A stretch of DNA of 64,000 nucleotides, from positions 56,716-120,715 of IMG/VR virus record IMGVR_UViG_3300042290_000327, one strand, 5' to 3'. Source of the DNA: a virus. Shown here one piece after another: positions 12,485-51,461 of the stretch (the stretch's first letter is position 1; every line of letters starts with the position of its first letter). The position numbers were made by a program, and so were the translations under genes. The notes beneath the pieces were generated by a model. The model searched no databases. It was not told where the DNA came from and worked only from the letters and a program-made list of their open reading frames with translations.

Positions 12485-12895
12485 ATGAAACTCATCTCTG
12501 CTTTACTCCAGGAATCTATCTCGGGTCTTTTTACCAACAGTATTAAGGACTTTGGCAATGATGAATATAATGTTTTTGCTACAGGCTACAGGATGTTAGG
12601 TGGGGAGATTACCTCCGGTGATGGTTTTTTGCAGGGATCTCGTGAGAATATGATAGATTTTAAGTTTACACCCAGTATCGTATCACCGGATTACGGTCAT
12701 TTTGCTTTTGATAACGTATCTTTACTTAATTACATCAAGACTAAGTTGATGGATACGGATTTGCGTAGGAAGATGGGGAAGGAATTCAATATTGCACCCG
12801 TTGCTAAGGATTTCGAGAGACAGATCCTTATAGCAGCCGGTAATAGCGCCGTTGATATCGTCTCAAGACTAGGCCGGCATAAGAAGGTGAACTAA
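12485..12895 (+). CDS. hypothetical protein with CTS-like leader MKLISALLQES
   Basis: TATTTATA at 12468; leader nearly identical to that of the ORF at 30590. Confidence 0.75.
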   Translation: MKLISALLQESISGLFTNSIKDFGNDEYNVFATGYRMLGGEITSGDGFLQGSRENMIDFKFTPSIVSPDYGHFAFDNVSLLNYIKTKLMDTDLRRKMGKEFNIAPVAKDFERQILIAAGNSAVDIVSRLGRHKKVN

Positions 12896-30140: not shown

Positions 30141-30593
30141 ATGACAGAACCTACCTGGACTTACAAGGGTAGGATGATCACTAAAATTTCCGATATGCCG
30201 GAAGGCACTTACGGATTTATCTACCAGATCACCCACACCCCTACCAACAAAAAATATATCGGCAAGAAAGTCATGTACTTTACCCGGAAGGTTAAGCTCA
30301 CCAAAAAAGAGATCGCCGAACAGACTGGCCCTGGCCGCAAGCCTATCACCAAATTAGTCACCAAAGAAAGTGACTGGGCTAGTTACTACGGATCCAACAA
30401 AGAGTTCTTATCTTTAACCAGAACCTTCCCTAAAGAAGAGTTCCATAAAGAGATTCTAGAGCTTGCTACCGGTAAAAAGATGCTTACCTACTATGAGTGT
30501 AAATATTTATTTAAATACGGTGCCATTGAGAATAACGAGTTATACTACAACGATAACATATTAGGTAAATTCTACAGGAAAGATTTTATATGA
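30141..30593 (+). CDS. GIY-YIG (Seg-like) endonuclease-family protein
   Basis: YGFIYQIT...KKYIGKK...YYGS...KEIL...YN. Confidence 0.8.
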   Translation: MTEPTWTYKGRMITKISDMPEGTYGFIYQITHTPTNKKYIGKKVMYFTRKVKLTKKEIAEQTGPGRKPITKLVTKESDWASYYGSNKEFLSLTRTFPKEEFHKEILELATGKKMLTYYECKYLFKYGAIENNELYYNDNILGKFYRKDFI

Positions 30594-31129
30594 AACTAAT
30601 CCAAGCACTTCTTACTGAGAGCACTTACTCTAAAATTAAAGATGCTTTTAAAGCAGCTGGAGCTACTGATGTAGGAGTAGGATCTCAAGGGGTTGTTTAT
30701 AGTGCACCCAAACCTGTACCGGAATTAGAGTACGAACCTAGAGAAGGGTACCTTGTAAAAATCACCCAGGATGACATCGAAATGGAGGCTATGATTAAAG
30801 CCCAGGGTAAAAAATTTAAATACCTGGCAAACATCGGTAAGGCAGTAAAGATGGAAAAAGGAGGCTGGTACCAAATCGAAAACCTACAGCCGGTCTCTCA
30901 AGAATACTCTGAGGAAATTGAGAAGAACGTTCATATATTAGATCAGTTCTTTAGCGAAGGAGATAAGAGCCTGCTTTCAGACCTATCCCCGTACCTGCAG
31001 AAGGTCTTTATCGGTGCAAGGCAGGAGCTGGTTCAAACCGGCATTGATCCTGAAGAAGTTGATATGTTCGGAGATGACAACAACGTAATGGCAACCGCCG
31101 ATGGTGATATAAAGCTTATCGACTATTAA
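30590..31129 (+). CDS. minimal protein-kinase-like protein with CTS-like leader
   Basis: GVGSQGVVY Gly loop, VKI lysine, D(MFGDD)NNVM catalytic loop, KLIDY. Confidence 0.65.
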   Translation: MKLIQALLTESTYSKIKDAFKAAGATDVGVGSQGVVYSAPKPVPELEYEPREGYLVKITQDDIEMEAMIKAQGKKFKYLANIGKAVKMEKGGWYQIENLQPVSQEYSEEIEKNVHILDQFFSEGDKSLLSDLSPYLQKVFIGARQELVQTGIDPEEVDMFGDDNNVMATADGDIKLIDY

Positions 31130-32110: not shown

Positions 32111-32889
32111 TTTATCCAGGTTCCAATTTTCTTTTAGAGCATAAGCAAAAACGCATTCAGTTCGACGGAGAGCTAAAGCAGATCACTCTGCCGGACCGCC
32201 GGGTTTACAGAAGAGGCGAAGGCATTTATTACCCCTCCGTTACTACGATCCTGCAGTACATGCCCAAAAATAAGTTCTTTGAGCAGTGGATTAAGGACGT
32301 AGGGCATAATGCCGATCTCATCATGAGAAGGGCAGGTGAAGAAGGGACGGCAGTCCACAATGCAGCCGAGGAGCTGATCAAAGGCGGGGAAGTCCAGTGG
32401 ATGGATGATTACGGCAAGGCTAAGTACTCGCTGCTGGTATGGCAGATGATCAATAAGTTCGTTGAAGCTTGGAAGGCCATGGACCCTGACGTCATTGCTA
32501 CCGAAGAATTTACCTTCTCAGACGTCCATAAGTATGCCGGTACTGCTGATATCATTGCCAAGATCGGTGATGAGGTTTGGTTGCTGGATATTAAGACTTC
32601 TAATTCTTTGCATAAGTCTCACGAGTTACAGCTATCGGCTTACGCCAAGGCCTGGGAAGAGATGTACGGGCAGAAGATCGACCGGACAGGTATTATCTGG
32701 CTAAAATCAACTAAGAGAACTGCCTCTAGCAAGGACGGAGCATTCCAGGGTAAGGGATGGGAGCTTAAAGTAGTTGATAACATCGATGAGAACTTTGAAC
32801 TATTCCAACTCATCTATAAACTCTACCTTTTAGAGCATCCTGCCGATGAACCATCCTTTCAGACATATCCTTTATCGGTAAAGTTGTAA
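32107..32889 (+). CDS. PD-(D/E)XK exonuclease (Cas4/RecB-like)
   Basis: YPSVTTIL, GTAVH, YAGTAD, DIKTS and QLSAY motifs. Confidence 0.85.
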   Translation: MIYPGSNFLLEHKQKRIQFDGELKQITLPDRRVYRRGEGIYYPSVTTILQYMPKNKFFEQWIKDVGHNADLIMRRAGEEGTAVHNAAEELIKGGEVQWMDDYGKAKYSLLVWQMINKFVEAWKAMDPDVIATEEFTFSDVHKYAGTADIIAKIGDEVWLLDIKTSNSLHKSHELQLSAYAKAWEEMYGQKIDRTGIIWLKSTKRTASSKDGAFQGKGWELKVVDNIDENFELFQLIYKLYLLEHPADEPSFQTYPLSVKL

Positions 32890-32935
32890 GCTATTTATAA
32901 AGAGCCTATCTTTAGGTAGATAAATAGTAAAAAAA

Positions 32936-33847
32936 ATGGGAGGAAACGTATTTGGAACTACAGATAAGATTAACAGGGAGGATATCAAACCTACCCTGCT
33001 TAACTTTTTAAAAGAATTCAAAAGGTTATTCCCCGCAGCCGAACCGCACTTCAGGCAGATGCAGACCCTAGGCTCTGCCGGCAAGAAAGAGGTATCTGGA
33101 GATATCGATTTAGCGATCTCAGACCAAAGCTTTGATAAGATCCAGGACTGGGGTTTAGATCAGAAGCACGTTCAGGAGCTCTTTGAACTTTTTAAGAAGA
33201 GATCTAGGACAGCCTCTGAAGACCAGCTTATGAAAAGAGCAGTGATCGTAGCTATTGCCGAAAAAATCCAAGAGTCTGATACCAACCTTGCTGTTGATGT
33301 AAAAGGATCTTCCGCAGGAGCGCTATTCCTCCAAGCCCCTCAGTTCAACGAGGCAGGAGAGCAATTAGAGAAGAACGTTCAGATTGATATAAACGTAGGA
33401 GATATAGACTGGCTTAAGTTCGCTTATTATTCTAGCGTTTATTCCGGTAACGTTAAGGGCCTGCATAGGACCCAGCTCCTGGTAGCTTTATTTGCTAACA
33501 AAGGATATATCTTCTCCCATAACTACGGAGTTAAGAACAAAGACACCCAGGAAGTAGAAGCTAAAACTCCTGCCCAGGCCATCGAGCTACTAAACAAACT
33601 CTACGGCGCTGATTTCAGCAATGAGATATTAGAGAACTATTTTAGCATCATTGAATCCCTTAAGAAGAACTTAAGTGAGCAGGACCTTAACAGAGTCTAC
33701 GACATCTACCTTAAGATACTTGACAGCACCCGGGCCGATATCCCGGAAGATCTTCAGGATTACTGGATCGCCAGCCAGGAGAGGTTACAGCTAAAGGGTA
33801 AATTCTTACCCGAGGATTCAAATCTTATAAAGTACCAGATTAAATGA
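32936..33847 (+). CDS. Pol-beta-superfamily nucleotidyltransferase
   Basis: LGSAGKKEVSGDIDL (GS..DxD) and VQIDI third Asp. Confidence 0.75.
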   Translation: MGGNVFGTTDKINREDIKPTLLNFLKEFKRLFPAAEPHFRQMQTLGSAGKKEVSGDIDLAISDQSFDKIQDWGLDQKHVQELFELFKKRSRTASEDQLMKRAVIVAIAEKIQESDTNLAVDVKGSSAGALFLQAPQFNEAGEQLEKNVQIDINVGDIDWLKFAYYSSVYSGNVKGLHRTQLLVALFANKGYIFSHNYGVKNKDTQEVEAKTPAQAIELLNKLYGADFSNEILENYFSIIESLKKNLSEQDLNRVYDIYLKILDSTRADIPEDLQDYWIASQERLQLKGKFLPEDSNLIKYQIK

Positions 33848-36687
33848 GCGGTGTAGCAGGAGGAAATAGAATCAAGAGACAGAACGTCCAGGATACGTTT
33901 AACGATTTTACTGAGAAGGTACTCAGTAAGATCCCGGGCTATAAAGTCTCTAGTCTTTCCGGGAGCGTGAAAGCAGGTTCAAAGCCTGACTTCGGTGACC
34001 TAGACATTATCGCTACCTTTGAGTATGATGATAAGAAAGTAGCCAAGCAGGCGATCATCGATACGGTATCAAAGATGCCGGACTCCTTGATTATACCTTT
34101 TAAGAGCGAGAGGTATGCCGGTAAAAGATTCTACAATTCAGGAGAGATCATCTCAGTACTGTATCCTATCAAAGGAGCACCCGGTGAATCTATTCAGGTA
34201 GATATCATGGTATCGCTTTCAGAAGTAGAGCATCAGTTTAAGAACTCATTCCTAGACCTACCCGCAGAAGTGCAGGGTTTGATCTTAGGATTAGTTAAGA
34301 CTGCGCTGCTGGAGCAGGATCCGGCCGAAGTATTTGCCCGTCTGGGAATCAAGAACGTACCGCCTTTAGAAGCAAATCAGGAATATGAATTCAACCTCTC
34401 TAGTGTAAATTTAACCCTTAGAAAAGTAACTCTGGATAACTTTAAAGAAGTAGCTAGAGAAGAGATTTGGAAATCCAATAACTGGGAGGATATTAAAAAC
34501 CTTCTTAAGGACTTTGATTTAAGCCAGCCTTTTGAAAAACTTTTAGACCAGGTCACAAGCTCGCTAAAAAATCCTAGAAGCAAGAACCGCGTAGCGGGAA
34601 TCTTCCGCTCAATGGTATCGGTTAAGTCCGGGGAAGTAGGTACTCCTAAAGGAGATAATAAAGAGAAGGCTTTAGCGGCCGTTGCTCAAACGCTAACTGA
34701 AGCAGAAGGAACTGTGATCGGACTTTATGGGGGCGGCTTTAAGCCACCTCACCGCGGTCACTTCCACATCGCTAAAGAGCTAGGCAAGGATGTAGATTTA
34801 ATTAAGATTTACATCGGTGGTAGGATCAGAGAAGGAGAAATAATCACAGCTCAGCAGTCAAAAGAGATCTGGGAGGTATATGCAAAGTACTTAGGTAAGC
34901 CTACCGAGATTGAAATCGCTCCGATCACACCTATCCTTTCAATCTACCAGGAGATCGAAGCTAACCCAAAGCAAGACTACGTAGTAGGTTCTTCTAGCGA
35001 TCCGGGAGATGCAGGTAAATTTAAAGCTTTACAGCTCAACAAAGACAATTTCTACGATAAAGCAAAATTAAAAATTGTGTCAACGATCAACGAAGAAAAA
35101 CTATCTGCTACCACAGTCAGAACAGATGCCGACTACCTAAAAACAGGTCAATGGATGCCTGAAGAACTTTCAGCAGACGATAAAAAAGTAGTACTCGGAA
35201 TTTTAAAAGCAACTCCTGAGTACAAAATGGCTGAAGCCATCGATGATGTATTTAGTAACTTCCTAGGAGAAAGCAAAAAAGAAAAAGCTGAAAAGCAAGA
35301 AGAGACTTCGGAAGTTAGTATGGGTACCCCCGTCACCCCGATCTCGGTCGTCCCATCGGTAGTCCGTCAAAGGATGCAAGACCTTACGGTTTACTTTCGG
35401 GATTTAGCCCCGGATGATGTCATCGTTGATTTCAACGGTCAGTCGATCGTCATTACCCCGATGATCTACAACAAGGCTGAACCGACAGGACCTGCTGACT
35501 TTACACCCCAGCAAAAACCCATCAACGAATTAGGAACGTACTTCAACTACGTACCGTATATCGCCGGGATACTGGAGCATATGATAACTAAAGGTATGAA
35601 GGTAGTCCCGCTACCGGAGATCAAAACCAGACAAGATGAAGAAAACGCTGCTAAGACTTTTGGTAAGACTGCTACGTATGATCCTGGTAAGAAAGAAGTC
35701 GTGCTGTATGTGACAGGCCGTCACCCCAAAGACGTCATGAGGTCTTTTTGTCATGAGATGATTCATCATATGCAGAATCTAGAAGGACGTCTGCCGATGA
35801 TTGCTACCACCAACACCCAGGAGGATTCAGCGTTAAACGAGATTGAAAAAGAGGCACATTTTAAAGGAAGTATGCTTATGAGGGAGTATGAGGATTCGAT
35901 CAAAAATCAAGATACCCTAGAAGAAGGTACTAAATACCGCTCCATCGTTGCTGATGTTAGACAGGCTGTTAACGATGCTTTAAACGTTTTAATATCGGGT
36001 AAAAAGCTAAAAGGGTATAACCTTAAGACCTTAAGAGAACCTAAGAAGAAAGACGTTGAAACTGCCAAGGAATACGGGATGTCTCCTTTAGGAGTTATGC
36101 TATCAACTGAATACCAGACCGCTTACCTGGGCAAGTTCACAAGCCAGAGTGAGAAAGGTACAAGAACAGAAGACGGTAAACCGATCACTGTAGAAGTTAA
36201 CCTAAAGTTTGCTCAATCTAATGAGGTCAAGCCCGGGGAGTACTACATCGACGGAGAAGCTTCATCAGAAGACGGAGAACTAGATATTATTCTAGCGTTT
36301 AATCCCGGTGACGGTGCTAGCATCCTTCAAAAGATCCAATCTACTTTGACCGATCTTATCCGTCATGAGACCGAACACCTTACCCAGTCCGGAGCTCAGC
36401 TCCAGCCCACCAAATGGATGAGGGGTGACCTAGCCATGCGCAAGAGGATCAGACAGAATCCAGAGACATTCTACAAGTACTTCATGCTACCTAAAGAAGT
36501 GGATGCAAACATCCAAGGACTTTACATGAAAGCAAACTACGACAAGACTGACTTTCAGTCAACTGTCGATCAGTACTTAGATAGCCTGGTTGATACCGGG
36601 GTAATATCGATAGAGAAGAGGAAAGAAGTCTACGATAAGTTTAAAGCCCGGATCCCTCAGATCGGAGGCATACCAAATCTTAACTAA
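33844..36687 (+). CDS. multidomain fusion: Pol-beta NTase + HxGH (cytidylyltransferase/NMNAT-like) domain + two HExxH domains
   Basis: SGSVKAGSKPDFGDLDI/IQVDI; GGFKPPHRGH...LSATTVR; HEMIHH (nt 35752); HETEH (nt 36364). Confidence 0.75.
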   Translation: MSGVAGGNRIKRQNVQDTFNDFTEKVLSKIPGYKVSSLSGSVKAGSKPDFGDLDIIATFEYDDKKVAKQAIIDTVSKMPDSLIIPFKSERYAGKRFYNSGEIISVLYPIKGAPGESIQVDIMVSLSEVEHQFKNSFLDLPAEVQGLILGLVKTALLEQDPAEVFARLGIKNVPPLEANQEYEFNLSSVNLTLRKVTLDNFKEVAREEIWKSNNWEDIKNLLKDFDLSQPFEKLLDQVTSSLKNPRSKNRVAGIFRSMVSVKSGEVGTPKGDNKEKALAAVAQTLTEAEGTVIGLYGGGFKPPHRGHFHIAKELGKDVDLIKIYIGGRIREGEIITAQQSKEIWEVYAKYLGKPTEIEIAPITPILSIYQEIEANPKQDYVVGSSSDPGDAGKFKALQLNKDNFYDKAKLKIVSTINEEKLSATTVRTDADYLKTGQWMPEELSADDKKVVLGILKATPEYKMAEAIDDVFSNFLGESKKEKAEKQEETSEVSMGTPVTPISVVPSVVRQRMQDLTVYFRDLAPDDVIVDFNGQSIVITPMIYNKAEPTGPADFTPQQKPINELGTYFNYVPYIAGILEHMITKGMKVVPLPEIKTRQDEENAAKTFGKTATYDPGKKEVVLYVTGRHPKDVMRSFCHEMIHHMQNLEGRLPMIATTNTQEDSALNEIEKEAHFKGSMLMREYEDSIKNQDTLEEGTKYRSIVADVRQAVNDALNVLISGKKLKGYNLKTLREPKKKDVETAKEYGMSPLGVMLSTEYQTAYLGKFTSQSEKGTRTEDGKPITVEVNLKFAQSNEVKPGEYYIDGEASSEDGELDIILAFNPGDGASILQKIQSTLTDLIRHETEHLTQSGAQLQPTKWMRGDLAMRKRIRQNPETFYKYFMLPKEVDANIQGLYMKANYDKTDFQSTVDQYLDSLVDTGVISIEKRKEVYDKFKARIPQIGGIPNLN

Positions 36688-36689
36688 AG

Positions 36690-37250
36690 ATGGGAATATT
36701 AGCAGATTTACTACTTACTGAAGAAGAGCAGAATCCAAAACCTAAAGGCAAGCTCTACTGTGATATGGACGGAGTGCTGACAGACTTCGATCAGAGGTTT
36801 GATCACTACTTTGAAATGCTTCCAGCCGAGTATGAAGAACGGAGAGGCAAGGCAGGGTTCTGGAGTGCCATCGCCCCGATCGGGCAGATCTTCTGGGAAG
36901 GAATGGAATGGACCCCTTACGGGAAAGTTTTATGGAAGCACATCCAGGATTTTAACCCTACTTTACTTACCGCTCCTTCATCCGAGCAATCATCCAGAGA
37001 CGGGAAAGTCGAGTGGGCGAATAGAGAACTTGATCCTATCCCTCCTATCATCTTTAGACAAGCTAAAGAAAAGCACCTAGAATGCTCCGGACCCGATGAC
37101 ATCTTGATCGATGACCGGGAAGATACTATCGAGAGATGGAAAGATGCCGGAGGAATAGGAATTTATCACCCCAAGAACGGGGATCCCACCTTAATTATCA
37201 GAAGATTAGAAACACTAGGTTATGTCAAGCCATCTAAAGAAGGAATTTGA
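36690..37250 (+). CDS. HAD-family 5'(3')-deoxyribonucleotidase-like protein
   Basis: YCDMDGVLTDF, LLTAP, K..W and LIDDR motifs. Confidence 0.85.
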   Translation: MGILADLLLTEEEQNPKPKGKLYCDMDGVLTDFDQRFDHYFEMLPAEYEERRGKAGFWSAIAPIGQIFWEGMEWTPYGKVLWKHIQDFNPTLLTAPSSEQSSRDGKVEWANRELDPIPPIIFRQAKEKHLECSGPDDILIDDREDTIERWKDAGGIGIYHPKNGDPTLIIRRLETLGYVKPSKEGI

Positions 37251-37794
37251 TGAGAGGGCTGTAAACAGAGCCCGGAACCTCATCACTAAAAATTTTAACA
37301 GCCGGACCATGGTCGGTTTAGGGTACGAGAAGGTAAAGCAAAAGCATACCGAGGGCGAAACCTGGCTAGAAGATGGTAGGACCTGGACCATTAAAAACGG
37401 TGTTAGACAGAATGTCACCAAACTCGACGGTGCTAAGAAGCTAGCTCAGACCCCGCTCATCTGCCCTAAATGCAGCGGTTCTATGAACCATCACCTGGCT
37501 AAAAAAATGTATAAGATCCACGGCTTTTGCTTTGATTGTACCATCGATATGGAGGCAGGTCTTAGACGAGCCGGGTTATACCAGGAGTATGAAAAGCAGA
37601 TGATGCAAGGCAACATGCAGGGCTGGGCTGAGGGTCTGCAGCAATGGATGATCGAGCAGCTAGGAGAGTCAATCTCCTTCGTTACCGAGGACGGTACAGT
37701 AGAGGACTGGGGAAACAATCCTGCCCGGCAAAAAGCCGAAATCATCAAGAACGTCAATCAATATCTTGACCACCTGAAGAAGCACCTGGAGTAA
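37222..37794 (+). CDS. zinc-finger hypothetical protein
   Basis: CPKC...CFDC. Confidence 0.7.
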   Translation: MSSHLKKEFDERAVNRARNLITKNFNSRTMVGLGYEKVKQKHTEGETWLEDGRTWTIKNGVRQNVTKLDGAKKLAQTPLICPKCSGSMNHHLAKKMYKIHGFCFDCTIDMEAGLRRAGLYQEYEKQMMQGNMQGWAEGLQQWMIEQLGESISFVTEDGTVEDWGNNPARQKAEIIKNVNQYLDHLKKHLE

Positions 37795-37814
37795 CTATTT
37801 ATAAAGAAACTTGA

Positions 37815-38744
37815 ATGATTTTAACTGAGTCAAAAGTTACGACAGTACTAACGGAAGGTCTTCGCTACCATTTGCAGACCGGCAATCCTTTATACGAGAA
37901 TATTTACCGTCCAGGGTCAGAGGAATACTTCAACACTATTCGTCAGGCACGTCTGCTTATGAACGAAGGTCTGCTACAGAATCTATGTCTAGAAGATATG
38001 GAGCTTTTGTTTGAAACCCAGGTAGGTGAGTATGCAGAATTCGAAGGTAAAAAAGTACCTTTAGACTTCCCGATGCTAGAGGAGATTACTTTTGTAATCC
38101 CCGACGCTGAAGCAACCTGGCTTCAAGCCTCTACAAATCCTCAGATCTTTAAGATGGGAGAACAGCAGTGGAAAAAGCTTTCTGATATATCCAAAGCGTC
38201 CGGAGGATTCGGATATACTGCAAAGTACTCCGACATCGACCCCGTTATGGAAGATCCGGCAACAGGTGAGCTAGTTACTTTTACTGACAGTGATCAGGTC
38301 CAGATGCCCGTAGTCCTGAAGTACCAGGAGGCAGGAGTAGTAAAGTACGAGATCGTAGTAGGAGAAGATATCCTTCACAGCCTGATTGACTCAGGTACCA
38401 ATCCCGACCCCGATATCTGGGTTGTGGACATTACAAGCGAGGCACTAGCCGAGGCTAAGTACCAGGGCAAGGAAGTAGCTTTGAATAAACCTAAAAGAGG
38501 AGGACCTAAGAAGTTCTTCGTTTACACCCGCAACCCTAAGACCGGCAAAACTATCAAAGTTAACTTCGGAGGCACTACAGGACTGACCGCTAAGATCAAC
38601 AATCCTGAAGCACGCCGTAACTTTGCCAGCCGTCACAACTGCGATCAGAAAAACGATAAAACCAAGCCCGGGTACTGGTCTTGCAGACTCCCAAGGTACG
38701 CCAAGTTGATTGGACTTAAATCAAGCTTTGGTGGTTTCTGGTGA
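37815..38744 (+). CDS. modular head-internal protein candidate with basic C-terminal domain
   Basis: TATTTATA at 37796; LTE/LEE/LAE junctions; C-terminal KKFFVY...VNFG...RRNFASRHNC...YWSC. Confidence 0.7.
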   Translation: MILTESKVTTVLTEGLRYHLQTGNPLYENIYRPGSEEYFNTIRQARLLMNEGLLQNLCLEDMELLFETQVGEYAEFEGKKVPLDFPMLEEITFVIPDAEATWLQASTNPQIFKMGEQQWKKLSDISKASGGFGYTAKYSDIDPVMEDPATGELVTFTDSDQVQMPVVLKYQEAGVVKYEIVVGEDILHSLIDSGTNPDPDIWVVDITSEALAEAKYQGKEVALNKPKRGGPKKFFVYTRNPKTGKTIKVNFGGTTGLTAKINNPEARRNFASRHNCDQKNDKTKPGYWSCRLPRYAKLIGLKSSFGGFW

Positions 38745-38745
38745 T

Positions 38746-39225
38746 ATGATTAAGTTAATAGATCTTATAAAAGAAATAGGAGACTCAAGTTCTCAACCAT
38801 ATAAATTTGATTTTTATGGTGATTATGATGTTATGAGAGTTTATGGATTTTATACTGAAAATTATCCATATACTGTAGAATTACAATATGATGATTTAGA
38901 TTTCTATGACGAGGATACAACTAACGTATTAGGAGTAAGATTCTATGTCTCAGATGAAGATGAACCGGATTTGGAACGAGATGATATTGTAACAAATAAA
39001 GGTGAACTGTTTAGAGTTATGGCAACTGTAACAGCTATTATTAAAAAAGATATTCAAAATCACCCTGAAATTGATACTATAACATTCACCCCATCAAAAA
39101 AAGAAGGTGAAACTGCAAATGTATCTAGATTAAACCTTTACACACGGTATATTAAATATGAATTCCCTAATGCTATTGTAAAACCATATGGTACTAGTGG
39201 TGGTGTAATAGTAAAACTCAAATGA
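38746..39225 (+). CDS. hypothetical protein with leader MIKLIDLIKE (start moved from 38710)
   Basis: ATG 2 nt after the upstream stop; TNKGELFRVMATV...RLNLY; visibly AT-richer than its neighbours. Confidence 0.75.
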   Translation: MIKLIDLIKEIGDSSSQPYKFDFYGDYDVMRVYGFYTENYPYTVELQYDDLDFYDEDTTNVLGVRFYVSDEDEPDLERDDIVTNKGELFRVMATVTAIIKKDIQNHPEIDTITFTPSKKEGETANVSRLNLYTRYIKYEFPNAIVKPYGTSGGVIVKLK

Positions 39226-39506
39226 GACCCTACACTGATCTAGAAGTTACAGACAAATACATCATCCGAGAATTTACCGAAAACATTGACCCAATAGAGT
39301 TAATGTGGCATAGGGACGACGAAGATCGTACTGTAGAACCACTCTGCCCTAGTGATTGGCAGTTCCAAAGAGACAATGAAATGCCCATCCTTCTTAAAGA
39401 GGGTGAAAGGATATTTATTAAGAAACACGAGTGGCATCGGGTCATTAAAGGTTCTGGTCATTTACTTATAAAAATTTTTAAACATGGCAAAGAAAAAGCA
39501 TACTGA
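39222..39506 (+). CDS. cupin-like protein
   Basis: WHRDDEDR...W.FQ...G..IFI...WHRVIKG. Confidence 0.65.
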   Translation: MRPYTDLEVTDKYIIREFTENIDPIELMWHRDDEDRTVEPLCPSDWQFQRDNEMPILLKEGERIFIKKHEWHRVIKGSGHLLIKIFKHGKEKAY

Positions 39507-39747
39507 TAACGAGATTATCGAAGAACTAGTAGCTGTAGCTACCCCGGAGATAACCCCGGAAATCGAATTGACTCCTGTAATTGAAGCAGCTCCTGTAGCT
39601 GTTACTGCCCCGGTTCTTACCCCAGGAGAGTACTACCAGGGAAAAAAGATTGAGAGATACGTCTCCAACCTAGGAAAGAAGGCCGTTGCAATCATCGAGG
39701 GAAAAAGAGTTAAAGTACTCAAAGCGGACGTCGTCAAAGTCAAGTAA
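39484..39747 (+). CDS. hypothetical protein
   Basis: Coupled ORF. Confidence 0.65.
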   Translation: MAKKKHTDNEIIEELVAVATPEITPEIELTPVIEAAPVAVTAPVLTPGEYYQGKKIERYVSNLGKKAVAIIEGKRVKVLKADVVKVK

Positions 39748-39890
39748 TGGCTAAGATCAAGTCTCAAGCAGTATCAACATTTCAAGACAGGCCGAAGGTC
39801 AGCAGACCGGGGGTACATTCTAAGACCAAGACTTCAGTTCTTAAAACCAGCAAGAACTATACCAAGAAGTACCGTGGCCAAGGTAAGTAA
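39747..39890 (+). CDS. small basic protein ending KKYRGQGK (47 aa, not in ORF track)
   Basis: MAKIKSQAVSTFQDRPKVSRPGVHSKTKTSVLKTSKNYTKKYRGQGK; TAATG coupling. Confidence 0.75.
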   Translation: MAKIKSQAVSTFQDRPKVSRPGVHSKTKTSVLKTSKNYTKKYRGQGK

Positions 39891-39897
39891 ATCTGCT

Positions 39898-40071
39898 ATG
39901 CACGCTTTCATGCGTGAGCTACTCCTAGAGGTAATCAAGGAGAAACCCGGACTATGGGCTAACATTAGAGCACAAAGAGCAAGGGGTGAAAAACCATCTC
40001 ACCCTAACTCCAAGGCTTACAAAGATGCTGTTAAGGCTGGAAAAGAGATTCTTAAAAAAGAAAAGAAATGA
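39898..40071 (+). CDS. small basic protein (start moved from 39874)
   Basis: MHAFMRELLLEVIKEKPGLWANI... Confidence 0.65.
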   Translation: MHAFMRELLLEVIKEKPGLWANIRAQRARGEKPSHPNSKAYKDAVKAGKEILKKEKK

Positions 40072-40289
40072 AACTAATAGACCTCCTCTTAGAAGCCAGC
40101 AACCCGGAGGACAAAGTTACTCTGGATATTCCCCTATTCATCAGACTTCTGGAGTACGCGAGAGAAGATGCCCAAGCAGACGTAGACCTACACTTTATAG
40201 CCGATAACGCTATCAGACTCTCCACAGAAGGTGAAACTCTAACAATGGATCATTACGATCAAATCGTCAAGCAAGATGAAGCTAAGTAA
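40068..40289 (+). CDS. small protein with leader MKLIDLLLEA
   Basis: DIPLFIRLLEYARED motif. Confidence 0.75.
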   Translation: MKLIDLLLEASNPEDKVTLDIPLFIRLLEYAREDAQADVDLHFIADNAIRLSTEGETLTMDHYDQIVKQDEAK

Positions 40290-40689
40290 ACTTATCAGCG
40301 AAGCGGAGGTTAAATGTCCTCCCGCAACCCAAGACATCGACCTCAATCTTGAGAACAGACAGAAAGCTATTGACGAATACGGATACGGCCCTGCTGACCC
40401 TTCCCAAAAGAACGAAAAGTTCTGGAAGAAGAAGATGGATATGTGGCAGGTCGATACAGCTGAAGAGCTTAAGAATATGGTATGCGGTACTTGTGCTGCT
40501 TTCGATATCACGACCAAGACCCTAGACTGTATCGCCAAGGGCATCGGATCGGACATGGGTACGGAAGATCCTTACGATGTGATTGATGCCGGTGAGCTAG
40601 GATACTGCAGATTTCTAAAGTTTAAATGCGCAGCCTCTAGAACTTGCGATGCTTGGGTGGTAGGAGGACCGATCAAAGATAAGGAATAA
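40276..40689 (+). CDS. Cys-rich HiPIP-like protein with leader MKLSKLISEA
   Basis: CGTC...GYC-x12-CDAW spacing resembles high-potential iron-sulfur proteins. Confidence 0.55.
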   Translation: MKLSKLISEAEVKCPPATQDIDLNLENRQKAIDEYGYGPADPSQKNEKFWKKKMDMWQVDTAEELKNMVCGTCAAFDITTKTLDCIAKGIGSDMGTEDPYDVIDAGELGYCRFLKFKCAASRTCDAWVVGGPIKDKE

Positions 40690-41156
40690 TGCAAGACCAG
40701 CTCCAGGAGTGGATAAAGTATATCCAGGAGCCTGGCAAGCTTGGCAACGGTCCAATCTGTCCTTATGCCGCTAAAGCAGTCAAAGAGAAGAGAGTAGATA
40801 TAACTGCTCTAACAAACATAGAAGATTTAGAACTGCTAATCGACCGGGTAGATACTACCGAATTCGATGTAAGCATTTTCTATTTTAAGCAGTACACAGA
40901 TTTTACTATAGAGGAGTTGGAGCAGAAGATAAAAGAACTTAACTTTATGTTTAAAGCTAAAGATAAAGTAATCTTAGACAACGATCCTCGCAATCCATTT
41001 ACAGTAAACGGTCATCGAACAACCTTTAATGGGTGTTATTTATATGTAATACAGTCACTCAGTGACCTAACACAGGCGTCTAATAGATTAAAAACAGGAG
41101 ATTACTATTCATACTGGACTCAGGCACAGTATGATGAAGTAGTAGGATGGAGATGA
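40689..41156 (+). CDS. hypothetical protein (CPYA motif, DUF1415-like)
   Basis: W..Y...LG..PICPYA.KA. Confidence 0.6.
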   Translation: MQDQLQEWIKYIQEPGKLGNGPICPYAAKAVKEKRVDITALTNIEDLELLIDRVDTTEFDVSIFYFKQYTDFTIEELEQKIKELNFMFKAKDKVILDNDPRNPFTVNGHRTTFNGCYLYVIQSLSDLTQASNRLKTGDYYSYWTQAQYDEVVGWR

Positions 41157-41365
41157 AAAATACAGAATTCGCAAACCTAATACAGGAACTAGCAGCCGAA
41201 GTGCTGGCAGAAGGAATTCACGATCCTATGAATCCAGGCATCCTCAAAAAGAGGCTAGGTAAGCTTTCATGTACAAAAGTAAGAGCGGCTAGGGGTAAAC
41301 TTAAAGACAAAGGCACTACGTATGCAAAAGCCCTGCAGAGGTACCTTAACTATCACTGTCAGTGA
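41153..41365 (+). CDS. small basic protein with LxE leader
   Basis: LIQELAAEVLAEG followed by PGILK...C...NYHC. Confidence 0.65.
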   Translation: MKNTEFANLIQELAAEVLAEGIHDPMNPGILKKRLGKLSCTKVRAARGKLKDKGTTYAKALQRYLNYHCQ

Positions 41366-41391
41366 TCTATTTATAAAGAAAAAACCTTACC

Positions 41392-41616
41392 ATGTCTAAA
41401 GTAACTTTCAACGGAGGCCTTTACCTAACAGGTACTTCCCCAGTATCAGGTAGCTGGAGAGCAATCACCTCAGTATCCTCAAGCACTGTAGTTCAATCTG
41501 TTACGTTTGCAGATGGCAGTACAGCCGCAAACCTACCGCTAGCAGCTGGTCTAAACCTAGATGTAAAGATCAGAGAAATCAAACTATCAGCAGGAGGAGC
41601 TTTCTTAGCTAAATAA
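41392..41616 (+). CDS. small beta-rich structural protein
   Basis: TATTTATA at 41368. Confidence 0.7.
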   Translation: MSKVTFNGGLYLTGTSPVSGSWRAITSVSSSTVVQSVTFADGSTAANLPLAAGLNLDVKIREIKLSAGGAFLAK

Positions 41617-41617
41617 T

Positions 41618-42688
41618 ATGAAGCTGCAGGAAAGCGACTTAGGGGACCTTATTCTTCATGCGACTAACTCGGAAACCGTTGAAGATTTTCTAAAAAAAGT
41701 AAAAGACGATAAACTAATAAGCAATCTCTCCACTAAAGAACTTAAAGATTTTTATAAGGAAAATAGAAATGTAGCTAAAAAAAAATCAAAGATGAATAAA
41801 GAAGCTATTTTAAAAGCCATTAAAGAAGTACTGACTGAAAAGAAAGCTACATATTGCGGAAGATGCGGACATACTCACGTCAAAGGAACCCCTTGCCCAA
41901 GACCTTTCAAAGAAGGGTTATCAACTTACGGCGATGATGCCTATTTCGTAGCACCAAACAAAGGAAAGATGAAAAAAGAAGATATTTTAAAAGCTATTAA
42001 AGAAGTGTTAACTGAAGTTGAGGTCACTGTAATAAGTGATCCAGAATCAAAAAAACGGGCAAAAGAAGCAGCAATGAGAGCTGGTGTAGCAAACCCTGAC
42101 TTTTTAAAGCAAATTGATAATGCTCAAAAAGGAGACACAATTACAGCCGAAGAAGCTATGATTCCTTCAGATGATCGAGTTAGTTATCTTGAAATTGCAT
42201 TAGGGCGTGTTTGGAATATGGGTCGTGGCAATAATAAGATTGATTTAAACTCAATGGCTCAAGAATTAGTTAACGATATGTTTGCTGAATCGTTAGATGA
42301 AGATTTAGACCTAGGACATGAGGATCACGAACCGCATATGATTAAATCAGAGCTTTACCAGATCGCAAAATACGCTATCGAGCTTTATAAGATGGTAGAC
42401 CAGTTTGACAGTGAGGCTGAAGTTGATTTTCCAGCCTGGTGGCAGTCTAAAATCACAAAAGCAAACTCAATGGTTAGCAGCGCCAAGCACTACCTTGAAT
42501 TTGAACTAGCTAAACCTGCAATGGATCAGGCTTTGGCAGAAGAAAAAAAAGCTAAAGAACTAGACCCGGTCGGTCATGAAGATGAAGATATCGACAACGA
42601 CGGCAAAGTAGACAAGACTGATAAGTACCTCAAAGGTAGAAGAGTTAAGATCGGCGCAGCAATCGCCCAGCATTCTAAGAAGAAATGA
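41618..42688 (+). CDS. modular head-internal protein candidate (duplicated ILKAIKEVLTE, Zn knuckle, EF-hand-like tail)
   Basis: MNKEAILKAIKEVLTE / MKKEDILKAIKEVLTE; CGRCGHTH; DEDIDNDGKVDKTDKYL. Confidence 0.7.
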   Translation: MKLQESDLGDLILHATNSETVEDFLKKVKDDKLISNLSTKELKDFYKENRNVAKKKSKMNKEAILKAIKEVLTEKKATYCGRCGHTHVKGTPCPRPFKEGLSTYGDDAYFVAPNKGKMKKEDILKAIKEVLTEVEVTVISDPESKKRAKEAAMRAGVANPDFLKQIDNAQKGDTITAEEAMIPSDDRVSYLEIALGRVWNMGRGNNKIDLNSMAQELVNDMFAESLDEDLDLGHEDHEPHMIKSELYQIAKYAIELYKMVDQFDSEAEVDFPAWWQSKITKANSMVSSAKHYLEFELAKPAMDQALAEEKKAKELDPVGHEDEDIDNDGKVDKTDKYLKGRRVKIGAAIAQHSKKK

Positions 42689-43254
42689 AACTAAATAAGC
42701 TTAAAGATATAATTCAAGAGGCATACTTTGAGGTGCTTATTGAGGCTGCCCAGCCCCCGGTCCAAGGACCGAAGAGGGACCAAACAGACCCTACATTGAA
42801 TATTCTCGGTAAGTTTCCTACCCTCCAAAAGACTCTCACCCACCTCCTAACCCCTCAGTACATGCAATTTGTAGAGAAGGTAGGATGGATGTCCCCTAAA
42901 CCCTCTACGTTCAAGGTAGAGTTTAAGTCCGGACAAGATATGGTCTTAAAGTGGATGGGTAAGAATTTTGAAGCCAATATCGAGGGCAAGCGCTACTACC
43001 TAGCCAACCTACCGGAGTACCAGCAGGCACTCGACAAGATCGGCATCATTCTCTCTCACGGTCCAATCCAGACAGGAATGGATGCATTAGGAGGAGAAGA
43101 GGGAGCAGGAGGAGATGTATTCGCAGGAGCAGGAGCACCTGAACCGGCTGCTGATGCCGGTGCTGATGCCGGTGCTGAAGCAGGAGCCGAGACAGGAGCA
43201 GAAACCCCCGCAACTACCCCCGGAGCTGGAGAGGACGTATTCGCAGGACTATAA
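42685..43254 (+). CDS. hypothetical protein with IIQE/LIE leader and G/A/E-rich tail
   Basis: Coupled ORF. Confidence 0.75.
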   Translation: MKLNKLKDIIQEAYFEVLIEAAQPPVQGPKRDQTDPTLNILGKFPTLQKTLTHLLTPQYMQFVEKVGWMSPKPSTFKVEFKSGQDMVLKWMGKNFEANIEGKRYYLANLPEYQQALDKIGIILSHGPIQTGMDALGGEEGAGGDVFAGAGAPEPAADAGADAGAEAGAETGAETPATTPGAGEDVFAGL

Positions 43255-44309
43255 TGGATTTAGTCGACAAGATAATCAAGGAATGGTCTTGGAGATGTGC
43301 TAAGGGTTATCCGCAGTTGGACTCTGAGGAAGATCTTCGTATCTTAGAAGGATTATTTAAAATTAACCTTACTGAAGCATCTTTGAGAACCAATACTGAA
43401 ATAGTAAAAGAAGAGGAGGAATCTGAAATCACCGTAGATGCTCTTATGGATCTCCTTAAGACTCGCAAAGACGATCTGCCTGCTGAATTCGTTAAGAATC
43501 TATACACTCAGATACAGGGCAAAGGTCAAGGAATATCTTCAAAAATATCTGAAATACTTACCGAAAAAGGTATGGAGGAAAGTAAGTACCTAGTACTAAC
43601 AACTGCCCAGAGATTGAATGCTGAAGAAAAACTTCTTAAATTTCTTGAATCCGACTCCATGCCCGGCCTTAGTGATTTAAGAGCTAGTGCTGGAGGCAGT
43701 TTAGTTGATTTCTTTGTAAAGCAGACAAACCTACCTACGGAGCTGGTACAGCCAATAGTTGACTTCTCTTCTATCCGTACAAGCAAAGGAGTTGGCAAAG
43801 GTGAGTACGGCCTGGCTCTCTTTATGAAAGACGGGGTTAAAAGATCAGTAGGAGACGTAGATGTTGAAGGAGTTAGTATAGAAATTAAAGCTGACTCAGC
43901 TAGATTAGGAGAGCGTCACGGTAACTTAAAGCAGTTAATTGAATCCTTAGAACAGATAACGCAAATCCCGGAAGCAGTTAACCTCGCCAAGTACCTCGAA
44001 CAGATCGGTAAAGCTAATTTAGACCCTGCAACTTTGACAAAGGTCAGAGAGGCGGTGAATAGAGAATTCCAAGACGCTTTTGCAGGATCTGATTTTGCCA
44101 ATATAGGTGAAATTCGCAACACGCTTTACGGATGGTATGTTGATAACTTCTACGCAACTGAACCCAGTGATTTAATTTTACTTTACATGCAAGGGAATTA
44201 TAAGATATACTCCCGTGAAGAATTCAAAGCCGCAGTACTATCAGGTGATATCAAATTTAAGAACGACTTTACCAAAAGCAACAAAGCCCCTCAGCTACTA
44301 GGATTCTAA
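43254..44309 (+). CDS. putative PD-(D/E)XK (restriction-like) nuclease with N-terminal leader module
   Basis: GVGKGEY...GDVDVEGVSIEIKA; N-terminal IIKEWSWRCAKGYP...NLTEA. Confidence 0.55.
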   Translation: MDLVDKIIKEWSWRCAKGYPQLDSEEDLRILEGLFKINLTEASLRTNTEIVKEEEESEITVDALMDLLKTRKDDLPAEFVKNLYTQIQGKGQGISSKISEILTEKGMEESKYLVLTTAQRLNAEEKLLKFLESDSMPGLSDLRASAGGSLVDFFVKQTNLPTELVQPIVDFSSIRTSKGVGKGEYGLALFMKDGVKRSVGDVDVEGVSIEIKADSARLGERHGNLKQLIESLEQITQIPEAVNLAKYLEQIGKANLDPATLTKVREAVNREFQDAFAGSDFANIGEIRNTLYGWYVDNFYATEPSDLILLYMQGNYKIYSREEFKAAVLSGDIKFKNDFTKSNKAPQLLGF

Positions 44310-50882: not shown

Positions 50883-51461
50883 ATGGCAAATCTCTTAATT
50901 GAATATACCCCTTTCCGTCCTACGATCACCGAGTCCGTAAAAAGACCCGGTATCTTCGAGGTTGTGGGTGTTATGCAGAGAGCCAATGCCAAGAACCAAA
51001 ACGGAAGGATCTACGAAAAAGACATCCTTGCAAGAGAGGTCAAGAAGTACATGGAAGCTTTCGTTAAGGTGGGTAATGCATACGGGGAGTTAGATCACCC
51101 GGAATCACCTATCGTCTCACTAAAAAATGCTTCCCACGTGGTGAAGGATCTTTGGTGGGATGGAGATAACCTAATGGGTAAGGTTGAGTTACTGAACACC
51201 CCAGCTGGCAACATCGTGAAAGAAATCATCAAGGGCGGTCATACGATCGGTATCTCTTCAAGAGGCACAGGCTCAGTCCAGCCCATCGGTGAGAATACCT
51301 TAATGGTGAAGGACGACTTCGAACTTGTGTGTTGGGATTTCGTATCGAATCCCTCCACTCACGGAGCATTTTTAAACCCCGTCTCCTTAAATGAGGTAAA
51401 GCAGGTAGTAGATCCTTACGCCCGGCTTCACAACATCATAGGTGACATTCTTAGAGCGTAA
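50883..51461 (+). CDS. prohead core protease (T4 gp21-like)
   Basis: NQNGRIY, GELDHP, GISSRGTGS and DFVSNPS motifs. Confidence 0.95.
   Translation: MANLLIEYTPFRPTITESVKRPGIFEVVGVMQRANAKNQNGRIYEKDILAREVKKYMEAFVKVGNAYGELDHPESPIVSLKNASHVVKDLWWDGDNLMGKVELLNTPAGNIVKEIIKGGHTIGISSRGTGSVQPIGENTLMVKDDFELVCWDFVSNPSTHGAFLNPVSLNEVKQVVDPYARLHNIIGDILRA

Follow-up and report, generated by a model that had tools for sequence, protein, structure and literature searches.

This work concerns a block of four tightly packed plus-strand genes in a 64,000-nucleotide (nt) stretch of viral DNA, hereafter called the window, which is part of the record IMGVR_UViG_3300042290_000327 (120.7 kb, estimated to be 74% complete). 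The source is a T4-like phage of aquatic Bacteroidota, and a T4-type portal, a gp23-type capsid protein, a large terminase and a gp21-type prohead protease are all encoded in the window. The first gene of the block, p303 (32936-33847, 303 amino acids), encodes a protein that begins MGGNVF, and its stop codon is overlapped by the start of the second, p947 (33844-36687, 947 amino acids), whose product begins MSGVAGGNRI. These are followed by the genes for a 186-amino-acid HAD protein (36690-37250) and a 190-amino-acid zinc-ribbon protein (37222-37794), which overlap by 29 nt. An initial annotation had described the first three genes as a nucleotide-transfer operon; its open reading frames (ORFs), motifs and coordinates proved correct, and the zinc-ribbon ORF, which it omitted, is the fourth coupled gene of the block. 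The constant core of the block is three nucleotidyltransferases (NTases), namely p303, the N-terminal domain of p947 (Ndom) and the HxGH domain that follows it. This core belongs to a phage-specific, conserved set of modules that includes an adenylyltransferase of the NMNAT/PPAT type, one or two zincin-like domains, a deoxynucleotidase and a zinc-ribbon protein. In the nearest named phage, Flavobacterium phage immuto, the gene order is the same and the large protein is 44% identical.

AlphaFold2 models built from family alignments reached a predicted local distance difference test (pLDDT) score of 87.1 for p303 and 69.4 for p947, the p947 model being good over its first two domains and moderate beyond them. 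The p303 model comprises a palm and thumb (residues ~9-235) with a helical insert of ~50 residues (~63-113) and a C-terminal three-helix tail. A VIA fold search with this model matched African swine fever virus (ASFV) PolX (5hr9) at Z 9.3, with 164 residues aligned of the 176-residue chain, as well as Pol beta (Z 9.2), TdT (9.0) and Pol lambda (8.8). All eight matches with Z of at least 8 belong to family X (8.7-9.3), the best other NTase being TUT1 at 6.9, and Foldseek returned Pol mu/lambda (E 2e-4). Ndom (p947 residues 1-285, 33844..34698) is predicted to be a second minimal family-X-like nucleotidyltransferase and a paralogue of p303. Its residues 1-230 matched TdT (Z 11.3), the Pol beta palm-thumb (11.3/10.9) and ASFV PolX (10.7, 161 residues aligned) in VIA, and Pol lambda/beta in Foldseek (E 2e-6). 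TUT7 matched Ndom at Z 9.4 over the palm only, whereas the family X matches (10.7-11.3) extend over residues 1-230. We conclude that, as modeled, p303 and Ndom are minimal family-X-like enzymes made of palm plus thumb.

The Pol-beta-type fold that the initial annotation had assigned to both proteins is borne out by these VIA and Foldseek comparisons, and more specifically as a family X palm-thumb. Two of the roles it had listed for such folds, cyclic-oligonucleotide synthase and protein AMPylase, are not supported; CD-NTases and cGAS-like receptors matched p303 at Z 4.2-5.6 versus 8.7-9.3 for family X, and both readings were set aside on this ranking. The 8-kDa deoxyribose phosphate (dRP)-lyase domain and the fingers (helix-hairpin-helix) domain are absent from both NTases, with no residues before the palm in the aligned ranges. 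Since ASFV Pol X also lacks these domains, their absence excludes only the canonical cellular form of PolX. A family X fold with a thumb would favor action on nucleic-acid 3' ends or gaps. Prediction of a complex between p303 and Ndom gave a score of 0.00, which counts neither for nor against binding.

The active-site residues of both NTases are strictly conserved. In the p303 family (50 sequences, 30-52% identity), G46, S47, D56, D58, Q149 and D151 are invariant. The GS..DxD motif of Ndom lies at p947 residue 40 and its third Asp within IQVD (117-120); G40, D52, D54 and D120 are invariant in a 28-sequence as well as a 25-sequence set, and S41 is invariant in the former and nearly so in the latter. 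Both proteins carry the Pol-beta palm signature, that is, G-S, DxD 8-10 residues on, and a third catalytic Asp. Comparison of the two families by hhalign, using deep alignments of 144 and 60 sequences, gave a probability of 89% and E 2.3e-6 over 145 columns, with the three motifs in register. Shallow alignments gave E 0.031 and a probability of 1.6%, and BLASTP of p303 against Ndom found no useful match (E 0.62). By profile comparison, p303 and Ndom are distant paralogues, as the initial annotation had suspected; its remark that both proteins start with GGN holds for p303 (MGGNVF), while in p947 the GGN is found only at residues 6-8.

Searches of the PDB with either NTase family, using single sequences and profiles, returned no polymerase and no solved PolX. 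Pfam DNA_pol_B_palm matched no window protein; it exceeded its 25-bit cut-off in the relatives L070 (26.7 bits) and P0314 (27.5 bits), and 7 of 28 diverse members matched at E<=0.1. Neither p303 nor p947 belongs to a PHROGs family or matches PADLOC, and a scan of 185,579 cellular genomes, limited to two peptide patterns, yielded no relative. The family is large and virus-only, with two such enzymes per genome, and comprises at least 1872 and at least 828 protein clusters.

The second domain of p947, HxGH (residues 286-470, 34699..35253), was assigned by fold and motifs as an NMNAT/PPAT-like nucleotidyltransferase. It carries GGFKPPHRGH at residue 297 and SATTVR at 421, and H303, H306, S421, A422 and R426 are invariant in 28 p947 homologues. 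VIA matches to residues 289-465 were led by the NadM NMNAT 2qjt (Z 12.9), the M. jannaschii NMNAT (12.8) and PPAT (12.6), and ranged from Z 12.9 to 10 across NMNAT, PPAT and cytidylyltransferases. As judged from the model, the domain is a HIGH-superfamily member with a Rossmann-type, NMNAT/PPAT-like fold, in line with the fold first proposed for it. Pfam CTP_transf_like (cut-off 21 bits) scored 15.2 bits with the window protein and 42.2, 40.8, 27.4 and 26.0 bits with the relatives L043, P0241, L075 and P0279, respectively; 15 of 28 diverse members matched at E<=0.1. Sequence matches to NMNAT are confined to the first 30-40 residues of the domain, and PDB sequence matches have E values of 0.05-1. 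Because the sequence matches are short and far below the family cut-offs, the 'NMNAT/NadR' label carried by the immuto homologue appears to be a superfamily-level guess.

The remainder of p947 contains two HExxH motifs. The first zincin-like domain, Zn1 (residues 505-695, 35356..35928), carries HEMIHH at 637-642, and the second HExxH domain, Zn2 (residues 696-947, 35929..36687), which is missing in many relatives, carries HETEH at 841-845. In the 28 homologues H637, E638, H641, H642, H841, E842, E844 and H845 are invariant; together with the NTase and HxGH residues of the p947 family and those of the 50-sequence p303 family, this agrees with the expectation that the catalytic Asp and His residues are conserved. 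Secondary structure assignment (DSSP) of Zn1 gave a helix (570-582), three strands (592-596, 610-613 and 618-622), the HEMIHH helix (628-646) and a further helix (662-687) that contains a conserved IEKEA with invariant E668 and E670. Zn2 consists of four strands, a helix (821-848) bearing HETEH, and a later helix with invariant E885. The zincin core has been described as a helix, a three-stranded sheet, the HExxH helix and a Glu-bearing helix (PMC5512222). Both domains may fit this core, by motif, secondary structure and weak matches only, the C-terminal HExxH region of the model having a pLDDT of only 50-75.

The weak matches are the following. The putative metallopeptidase family DUF6782 of Pfam matched relatives at E 7.2e-4, 0.055 and 0.16, all under its cut-off of 27; Peptidase_M91 matched 3 of 28 members with E of at least 0.06; and the Atlas leads for Zn1, SprT-like and M78, were below 0.9. 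Searches with the whole model listed fold matches to the first two domains of p947. Zn1 and Zn2 resemble each other at the motif only (hhalign E 0.007, probability 5%), and their paralogy is not supported.

The 186-amino-acid protein is predicted to be a HAD-superfamily 5'(3')-deoxyribonucleotidase of the NT5C type. It matched phrog_2643 (5'-3' deoxyribonucleotidase) at 7e-22 over residues 19-173 and carries a DMDGV motif, in support of the HAD nucleotidase originally placed in the operon. The Pfam families Hydrolase and NT5C remained under their cut-offs (NT5C, 14.4 bits versus 24.8), so that the assignment to the NT5C type rests on PHROGs. No PADLOC match was found for the HAD protein. The zinc-ribbon protein is basic (isoelectric point (pI) 8.8), has no family in Pfam, PHROGs, NCBIfam or PADLOC, and occurs in viral clusters only in the Atlas. 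Even in L070, L072 and L073, which are divergent loci, its gene adjoins the NTases.

A scan of viral contigs identified 78 loci with the block, and these loci, like immuto, bear out the idea that the gene order is conserved in relatives. Of the loci, 53 extend 5 kb or more past the downstream side of p303; 51 of these have Ndom, 48 have HxGH, 45 have Zn1, 45 have the zinc-ribbon protein, 43 have the HAD protein and 32 have Zn2. The score was Ndom only in four loci, one of which (L043) has Pfam CTP_transf_like in the same protein. An exhaustive profile search gave 483 representative proteins, many of them fused in other orders: p303-like with Ndom; p303-like with HxGH and Zn1; HxGH with p303-like and Ndom; or HxGH with a Zn1-like domain and HAD (L072). 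One relative of 1549 amino acids holds most of the modules. Conversely, the large gene is split in relatives at linker 2 (L016) or linker 3 (L046), the linkers being numbered from the N terminus of p947.

Extra domains of 98-170 residues are inserted exactly at the three linkers in L007, L064, L017 and L052, including insertions at linker 2 in L007, L017 and L052 and a 161-amino-acid insertion at linker 3 in L007. The loci concerned are L007:8909-12541, L064:8942-12193, L017:8911-12147 and L052:980-4219. One insert weakly resembles RegB_T4/DUF4258 (RNase-like), one is weakly YunG-like with a Cys/His pattern, and one pair has no match. In addition, a 65-amino-acid ORF of the window (39874-40071) carries GLWANI...NSKAYKDAVKAG, and a very similar stretch of 40 residues is inserted in linker 3 of P0068 and P0089 (alignment columns ~716-755); since the stretch occurs both on its own and inserted, this small module also moves between these forms. 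The initial annotation had staked its reading on the predicted folds, which were found, and on catalytic residues and synteny, which proved to be conserved. These folds, the conserved catalytic residues and the conserved gene order, combined with free fusing, splitting and reordering, indicate that the modules work together.

The places at which the modules are joined share a sequence motif. In all 28 homologues, each of the three linkers of p947 contains [ILVM]-x-E followed by Gly, Ala or Ser. Junction 1 is L284-T-E286 followed by Ala (LTEAE, 34693..34701) and conforms to L[TSA]E-[AG] in 28 of 28; junction 2 is L474-G-E476 followed by Ser (35263..35271), with LGE-[SG] or [ILV][KRE]E-[GA] in 28 of 28; and junction 3 is L692-E-E694 followed by Gly (35917..35925), with [LMI]xE-G (LEEG, MAEG, MSEG, MEEG, IAEG) in 28 of 28. 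In linker 3 the strict form [IL]xE is present in only 6 of 28, and the full count is reached once Met and Val are allowed and the search range is widened past an alignment gap. The joints coincide with segments of low pLDDT, at residues 259-273 and 286-289 (junction 1), 458-503 (junction 2) and 677-698 (junction 3). The loop VSVKSGEVGTPKG (p947 residues 259-273, 34618-34662), just before junction 1, is near-invariant yet predicted to be disordered, with pLDDT below 50; its conserved residues are V260, K261, S262, G263, E264, V265, G266, T267, K269 and G270.

The same motif precedes the modules wherever they are found inside a longer protein. At internal starts of p303-like modules, Glu stands directly before GGN[VI]F in 37 of 43 distinct contexts, as in P0259 (FLLE-GGNVF), and [ILVM]xE is present in 34 of 43; the six contexts without Glu at -1 comprise four with ..[IL]-x-E-M-GGN, one with Met and one spurious minus-strand ORF. 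Internal Ndom starts are directly preceded by [ILV]xE in 11 of 11 cases. Before internal HxGH domains, [ILVM]xE lies 8-22 residues ahead of GGFKPPH in 39 of 40 distinct contexts, whatever domain is upstream. In the same proteins the baseline for [ILVM]xE is 0.0178 per position. When the modules come first in a protein, they start as M-GGN.. (82 distinct proteins) or M-SG.AGG (56), which shows that the hydrophobic-x-Glu element is not part of the fold.

In many relatives a leader of 8-36 residues ending in hydrophobic-x-Glu stands right before the module; many relatives of p303 have such leaders, some of them short and placed directly before GGN, and a stand-alone Zn1 (L073) has a 36-residue leader ending in IKE before GS. 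The HAD protein has the N-terminal leader MGILADLLLTE, and 25 of 27 distinct N-termini of its homologues have [IL]xE by residue 14. The window encodes a candidate cutter, a T4 gp21-type prohead core serine protease (50883..51461, plus strand; Peptidase_S77 4.5e-33, above cut-off). T4 gp21 is reported to cleave after L/I-X-E, and the substrates that it has processed, Alt and the internal proteins, to pass into the host by ejection (PMC9026906). The window protease itself begins MANLLIE, with L-I-E at residues 5-7, and an LIE near the N-terminus is also reported for T4 gp21 (PMC9026906). The junction motifs support processing of the multi-module proteins at their boundaries, most simply, it would seem, by the phage's gp21-type protease. 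The initial annotation's view of p947 as a polyprotein with prohead-protease-like joins is strengthened by the conserved sites and by the encoded protease; p303 and p947, which have no leader in the window (MGGNVF, MSGVAGG), speak against it. From its sequence, a p947-type string is probably cut into separate enzymes, which are possibly carried in the virion.

The 46-nt gap upstream of p303 contains two promoter-like motifs. A host-type motif, GTTG-N20-TAtcTTTA (32883..32914, plus strand; Bacteroidota -33/-7-like), lies 53 nt upstream of the first start codon, and its general form GTTG-N20-TAnnTTTA occurs 23 times in the window versus 0.69 expected, 36-67 nt and mostly ~50-58 nt upstream of ATG-ORFs. 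Nested in its spacer is CTATTTATA (32891..32899, plus strand), a late-type candidate with 11 window copies, all on the plus strand, versus 1.35 expected. One further copy is found upstream of the T4-type portal gene, and the next one after that of p303, at 37795, closes the four-gene block. Both motif types keep fixed distances upstream of start codons. The early-type and late motifs reported before the operon are present and overrepresented; the labels 'early' (GTTG-type) and 'late' (CTATTTATA) remain inference.

Directly upstream of the block are genes for a GIY-YIG SegE-like endonuclease, a 179-amino-acid protein, a DnaG-type primase and a PD-(D/E)XK exonuclease; the exonuclease is present upstream of p303 in 58 of 68 loci and the primase in 55 of 68. 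In immuto, the tail-fibre/spike genes flank the block on one side and the terminase, portal, protease and gp23 genes on the other. The endonuclease ORF of the window (30141-30593) matches Pfam SegE_GIY-YIG at 1e-25, yet phrog_447 and its immuto homologue are labelled 'NAD synthetase' (NAD, nicotinamide adenine dinucleotide). This label looks like an annotation error and could mislead NAD-centred readings of the region. The proteins encoded at 30590-31129 and 12485-12895 are small and unrelated, and share near-identical leaders (MKLIQALLTES and MKLISALLQES), both ending in an L-x-E site.

The reading that we favor, while holding it short of probable, is that of a processed enzyme kit for work on nucleic-acid ends or gaps and for nucleotide or NAD provisioning, which would probably be delivered by the virion. 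The multi-module proteins would be polyproteins, cut at the hydrophobic-x-Glu that stands ahead of a small residue at every module boundary. Such a site has the known specificity of T4 gp21, and the likeliest cutter would be the phage's own gp21-type prohead protease. For modules that come first in a gene and begin Met-Gly or Met-Ser, the Gly or Ser is exactly the residue found after the Glu in fused forms, so that removal of Met from the stand-alone form or cleavage after Glu in the fused form would yield the same mature N-terminus. If the prohead protease does the cutting, the enzymes would sit in the prohead and the kit would be ejected with the DNA. This proposal fits the late-type motif before the block, the position beside virion genes and the polyvalent-protein architecture. 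In a weaker step, the PolX-like pair may then act in the newly infected cell by filling gaps or extending 3' ends of nucleic acid, most likely of the incoming phage DNA. Equally tentative is the step in which the adenylyltransferase and the nucleotidase would adjust a nucleotide cofactor or pool, the leading candidate being NAD, either to supply the NAD-dependent ligase of the host or to counter NAD depletion.

Several observations weigh against this reading. The sequences behind the junction counts are related, so that these are not independent events, diverse as the upstream contexts are. T4 internal proteins are loaded via a capsid-targeting leader, which the window's p303 and p947 lack. 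The leader-like N-terminus of the HAD protein counts for little, because [IL]xE starting at residues 3-14 is shared by 30 of the 75 plus-strand, non-overlapping ATG-ORFs of at least 70 amino acids, often as MKL..LLxE and most densely at 37815-44309. About 13% would be expected from the frequency inside domains (~0.011 per residue), and the excess reflects either many cleavable leaders or a general N-terminal helix habit of the phage. Within p947 as a whole LxE is not enriched (8 versus 6.1 expected), and one [IL]xE-[GAS] site (IREG, residue 328) falls inside the HxGH domain. Nor are the two PolX-like proteins basic (pI 5.3 for p303 and 6.7 for Ndom); as they also have no DNA-binding 8-kDa or fingers domains, a nucleic-acid substrate is not established. 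As to NAD, the best NCBIfam score of the HxGH domain, 27 bits against an NMNAT equivalog cut-off of 240, covers residues 283-322 only, NMNAT and PPAT tie in Z, and no Nampt was found in the record itself (74% complete) or in three of five relatives that are at least 93% complete. Searches for Nampt, RNA ligase and NAD ligase found no pathway partner that is constant across relatives. The zincin-like domains embedded in p947 could be processing enzymes without any link to the head, and with a primase and an exonuclease upstream and a host-type promoter, a purely cytoplasmic role fits as well.

The main rival is built on such a role: an unpackaged, cytoplasmic replication and repair module for gap filling, pool trimming and supply of NAD to the host ligase, with junctions cut by the zincins or left uncut, which we regard as unlikely though clearly to be reckoned with. 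It would account for the primase and exonuclease frequencies given above, for the host-type promoter motif and for the absence of leaders from p303 and p947. Zincin-like peptidases are, moreover, the predicted self-processing element in polyvalent proteins (PMC5512222), and no NAD or ATP ligase was found in the phage's own record, an NAD ligase being present in one of five complete relatives. Against it, the phage itself encodes a gp21-type protease whose specificity the junction motif matches, and this motif is retained in fusions that contain no zincin (such as P0250, P0269 and L070). The late-type motif before the block and the location of the block between tail and head genes likewise argue for the head rather than the cytoplasm.

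An NAD-centred counter-defence, in which HxGH would be a true NMNAT that restores NAD depleted by host defences, the HAD protein would act on mononucleotides and the PolX-like domains would act on small molecules or proteins, seems improbable. NMNATs are the best fold matches of HxGH, GGFKPPHxGH yields partial NadD matches, jumbo phages have been described as carrying HIGH-type NMNATs fused to other domains (PMC7824862), both PolX-like proteins have an acidic or near-neutral pI, and HxGH is fused to HAD in L072. However, PPAT ties with NMNAT (Z 12.6) and no equivalog cut-off is reached; Nampt is found in only two of the five complete relatives; PADLOC gave no match; and the NTases match family X including its thumb (Z 8.7-11.3) rather than CD-NTases and minimal NTases (~4-6). 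We hold a kit for RNA or tRNA 3'-end repair to be doubtful to the same degree. Here, the paralogous NTases would rebuild an end stepwise, like split CC- and A-adding enzymes, with help from the phosphatase. The two enzymes do have intact active-site residues and always occur together, certain phage NTases have been described as adding missing bases back to RNA ends (PMC7824862), and a RegB/BECR-like RNase stretch is found in one relative's linker (E 1.2e-3, below cut-off). But RNA ligase is present in only two of five complete relatives, the window has no tRNA genes, there is no Pfam match to RlaP or CCA-adding families, and the folds favor family X DNA polymerases over RNA-specific terminal uridylyltransferases and poly(A) polymerases. 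NAD or tRNA restoration, which the initial annotation had suggested, is not supported by these gene contents.

Most improbable of all, in our view, is a helper function in 7-deazaguanine modification, by which the block would mend abasic or gapped sites after base exchange or exclude deoxyguanosine nucleotides. Immuto is reported to replace all G by fdPreQ1 (PMC10516641), QueC is present in four of five relatives tested (G001, G002, G004 and G006, loci L080-L083), and the task would be well suited to polymerases of the gap-filling type together with a deoxynucleotidase. On the other hand, the 96%-complete relative G003 has the block and no QueC, QueC lies ~90 kb from the block in G001 and in the immuto record G006, and the block genes are not implicated in the part of the immuto study consulted (PMC10516641). 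QueC was not found in the phage's own record (G000); judged by the layout of G001, its region is outside this 74%-complete sequence. A Pfam TGT search detected no DpdA in G000 or in the five relatives; as three of these carry QueC, DpdA of this phage type is probably beyond the reach of the Pfam model.

To return to the favored kit of processed enzymes, its most specific form would give the exposed N-terminus itself a function, a possibility to which we assign little weight. The free Gly of GGNVF or Ser of SGVAGG, exposed by Met removal or by head-protease cleavage, might for example act as a dRP/apurinic-apyrimidinic (AP)-lyase amine and so replace the missing 8-kDa domain. The protease-activated polyprotein would then be a two-polymerase machine for base-excision or gap repair, shipped in the capsid, that mends the incoming genome before phage gene expression. 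The genome of immuto, in this connection, is fully 7-deazaguanine-substituted.

The kinds of components assembled here are already known, namely PolX, HIGH NTases, zincins, polyvalent proteins and gp21-processed internal proteins. In main texts of the literature we did not find a PolX-like pair in tailed phages, its fusion to a HIGH NTase, or head-protease-type sites at every joint. Full-text literature searches gave no report of a phage PolX, and the words PolX and 'family X' do not occur in a 2024 survey of polymerases in this phage group (PMC11348598). Phage polymerases are not counted as including family X; here, two family-X-like enzymes per genome are carried by a virus-only family. Like ASFV Pol X and the PolX core, p303 and Ndom consist of palm and thumb without other domains, with GS-x8-10-DxD and a third Asp at family X spacing. 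Unlike these enzymes, they have no sequence match to solved PolX and are acidic or near neutral instead of basic, and their polymerase role is predicted. They also differ in the helical insert and extra C-terminal helical tail of p303, in forming an obligate pair tied to a HIGH NTase, and in a strictly conserved N-terminus. With NMNATs (NadD, NadR, NadM), the HxGH domain shares the HxGH and S-x-T-x-x-R motifs and a Rossmann-type fold (Z 12.8-12.9), and the immuto homologue is annotated as NMNAT/NadR. The sequence matches are partial, however, PPAT scores equally well, Nampt is not a steady companion, and the immuto annotation covers one of five modules.

The closest architectural precedents are the polyvalent proteins (Iyer, Burroughs, Anand, de Souza, Aravind 2017, PMC5512222), which are described as combining several unrelated enzyme domains with one or more zincin-like HExxH domains placed between or behind them, as having mosaic orthologues, as encoded among virion genes and as predicted to be processed into units. 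With its five modules, mosaic relatives and position near virion genes, p947 has this architecture. The Pol-beta NTases described for polyvalent proteins are minimal versions in conjugative elements, and a search of the text of that paper on Pol beta/NTase terms, which did not extend to HIGH-type domains, found no family X-like domain. In p947, furthermore, the junctions carry the head-protease motif, rather than a zincin domain being the only processing element. T4 internal proteins and Alt (PMC9026906) offer the other precedent, given the gp21-type protease, the L/I-x-E at module starts, the leaders in many relatives and the late-type motif. They differ in that p303 and p947 of the window have no leader, and in that T4 substrates lose terminal propeptides, whereas here whole enzymes would separate at internal junctions. 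A cultured relative exists in Flavobacterium phage immuto, together with its host. If the head protease cuts the junctions, the T4 paradigm of ejected proteins would extend from the removal of small propeptides to the release of whole enzymes, and the idea of the polyvalent protein would gain a concrete processing mechanism.

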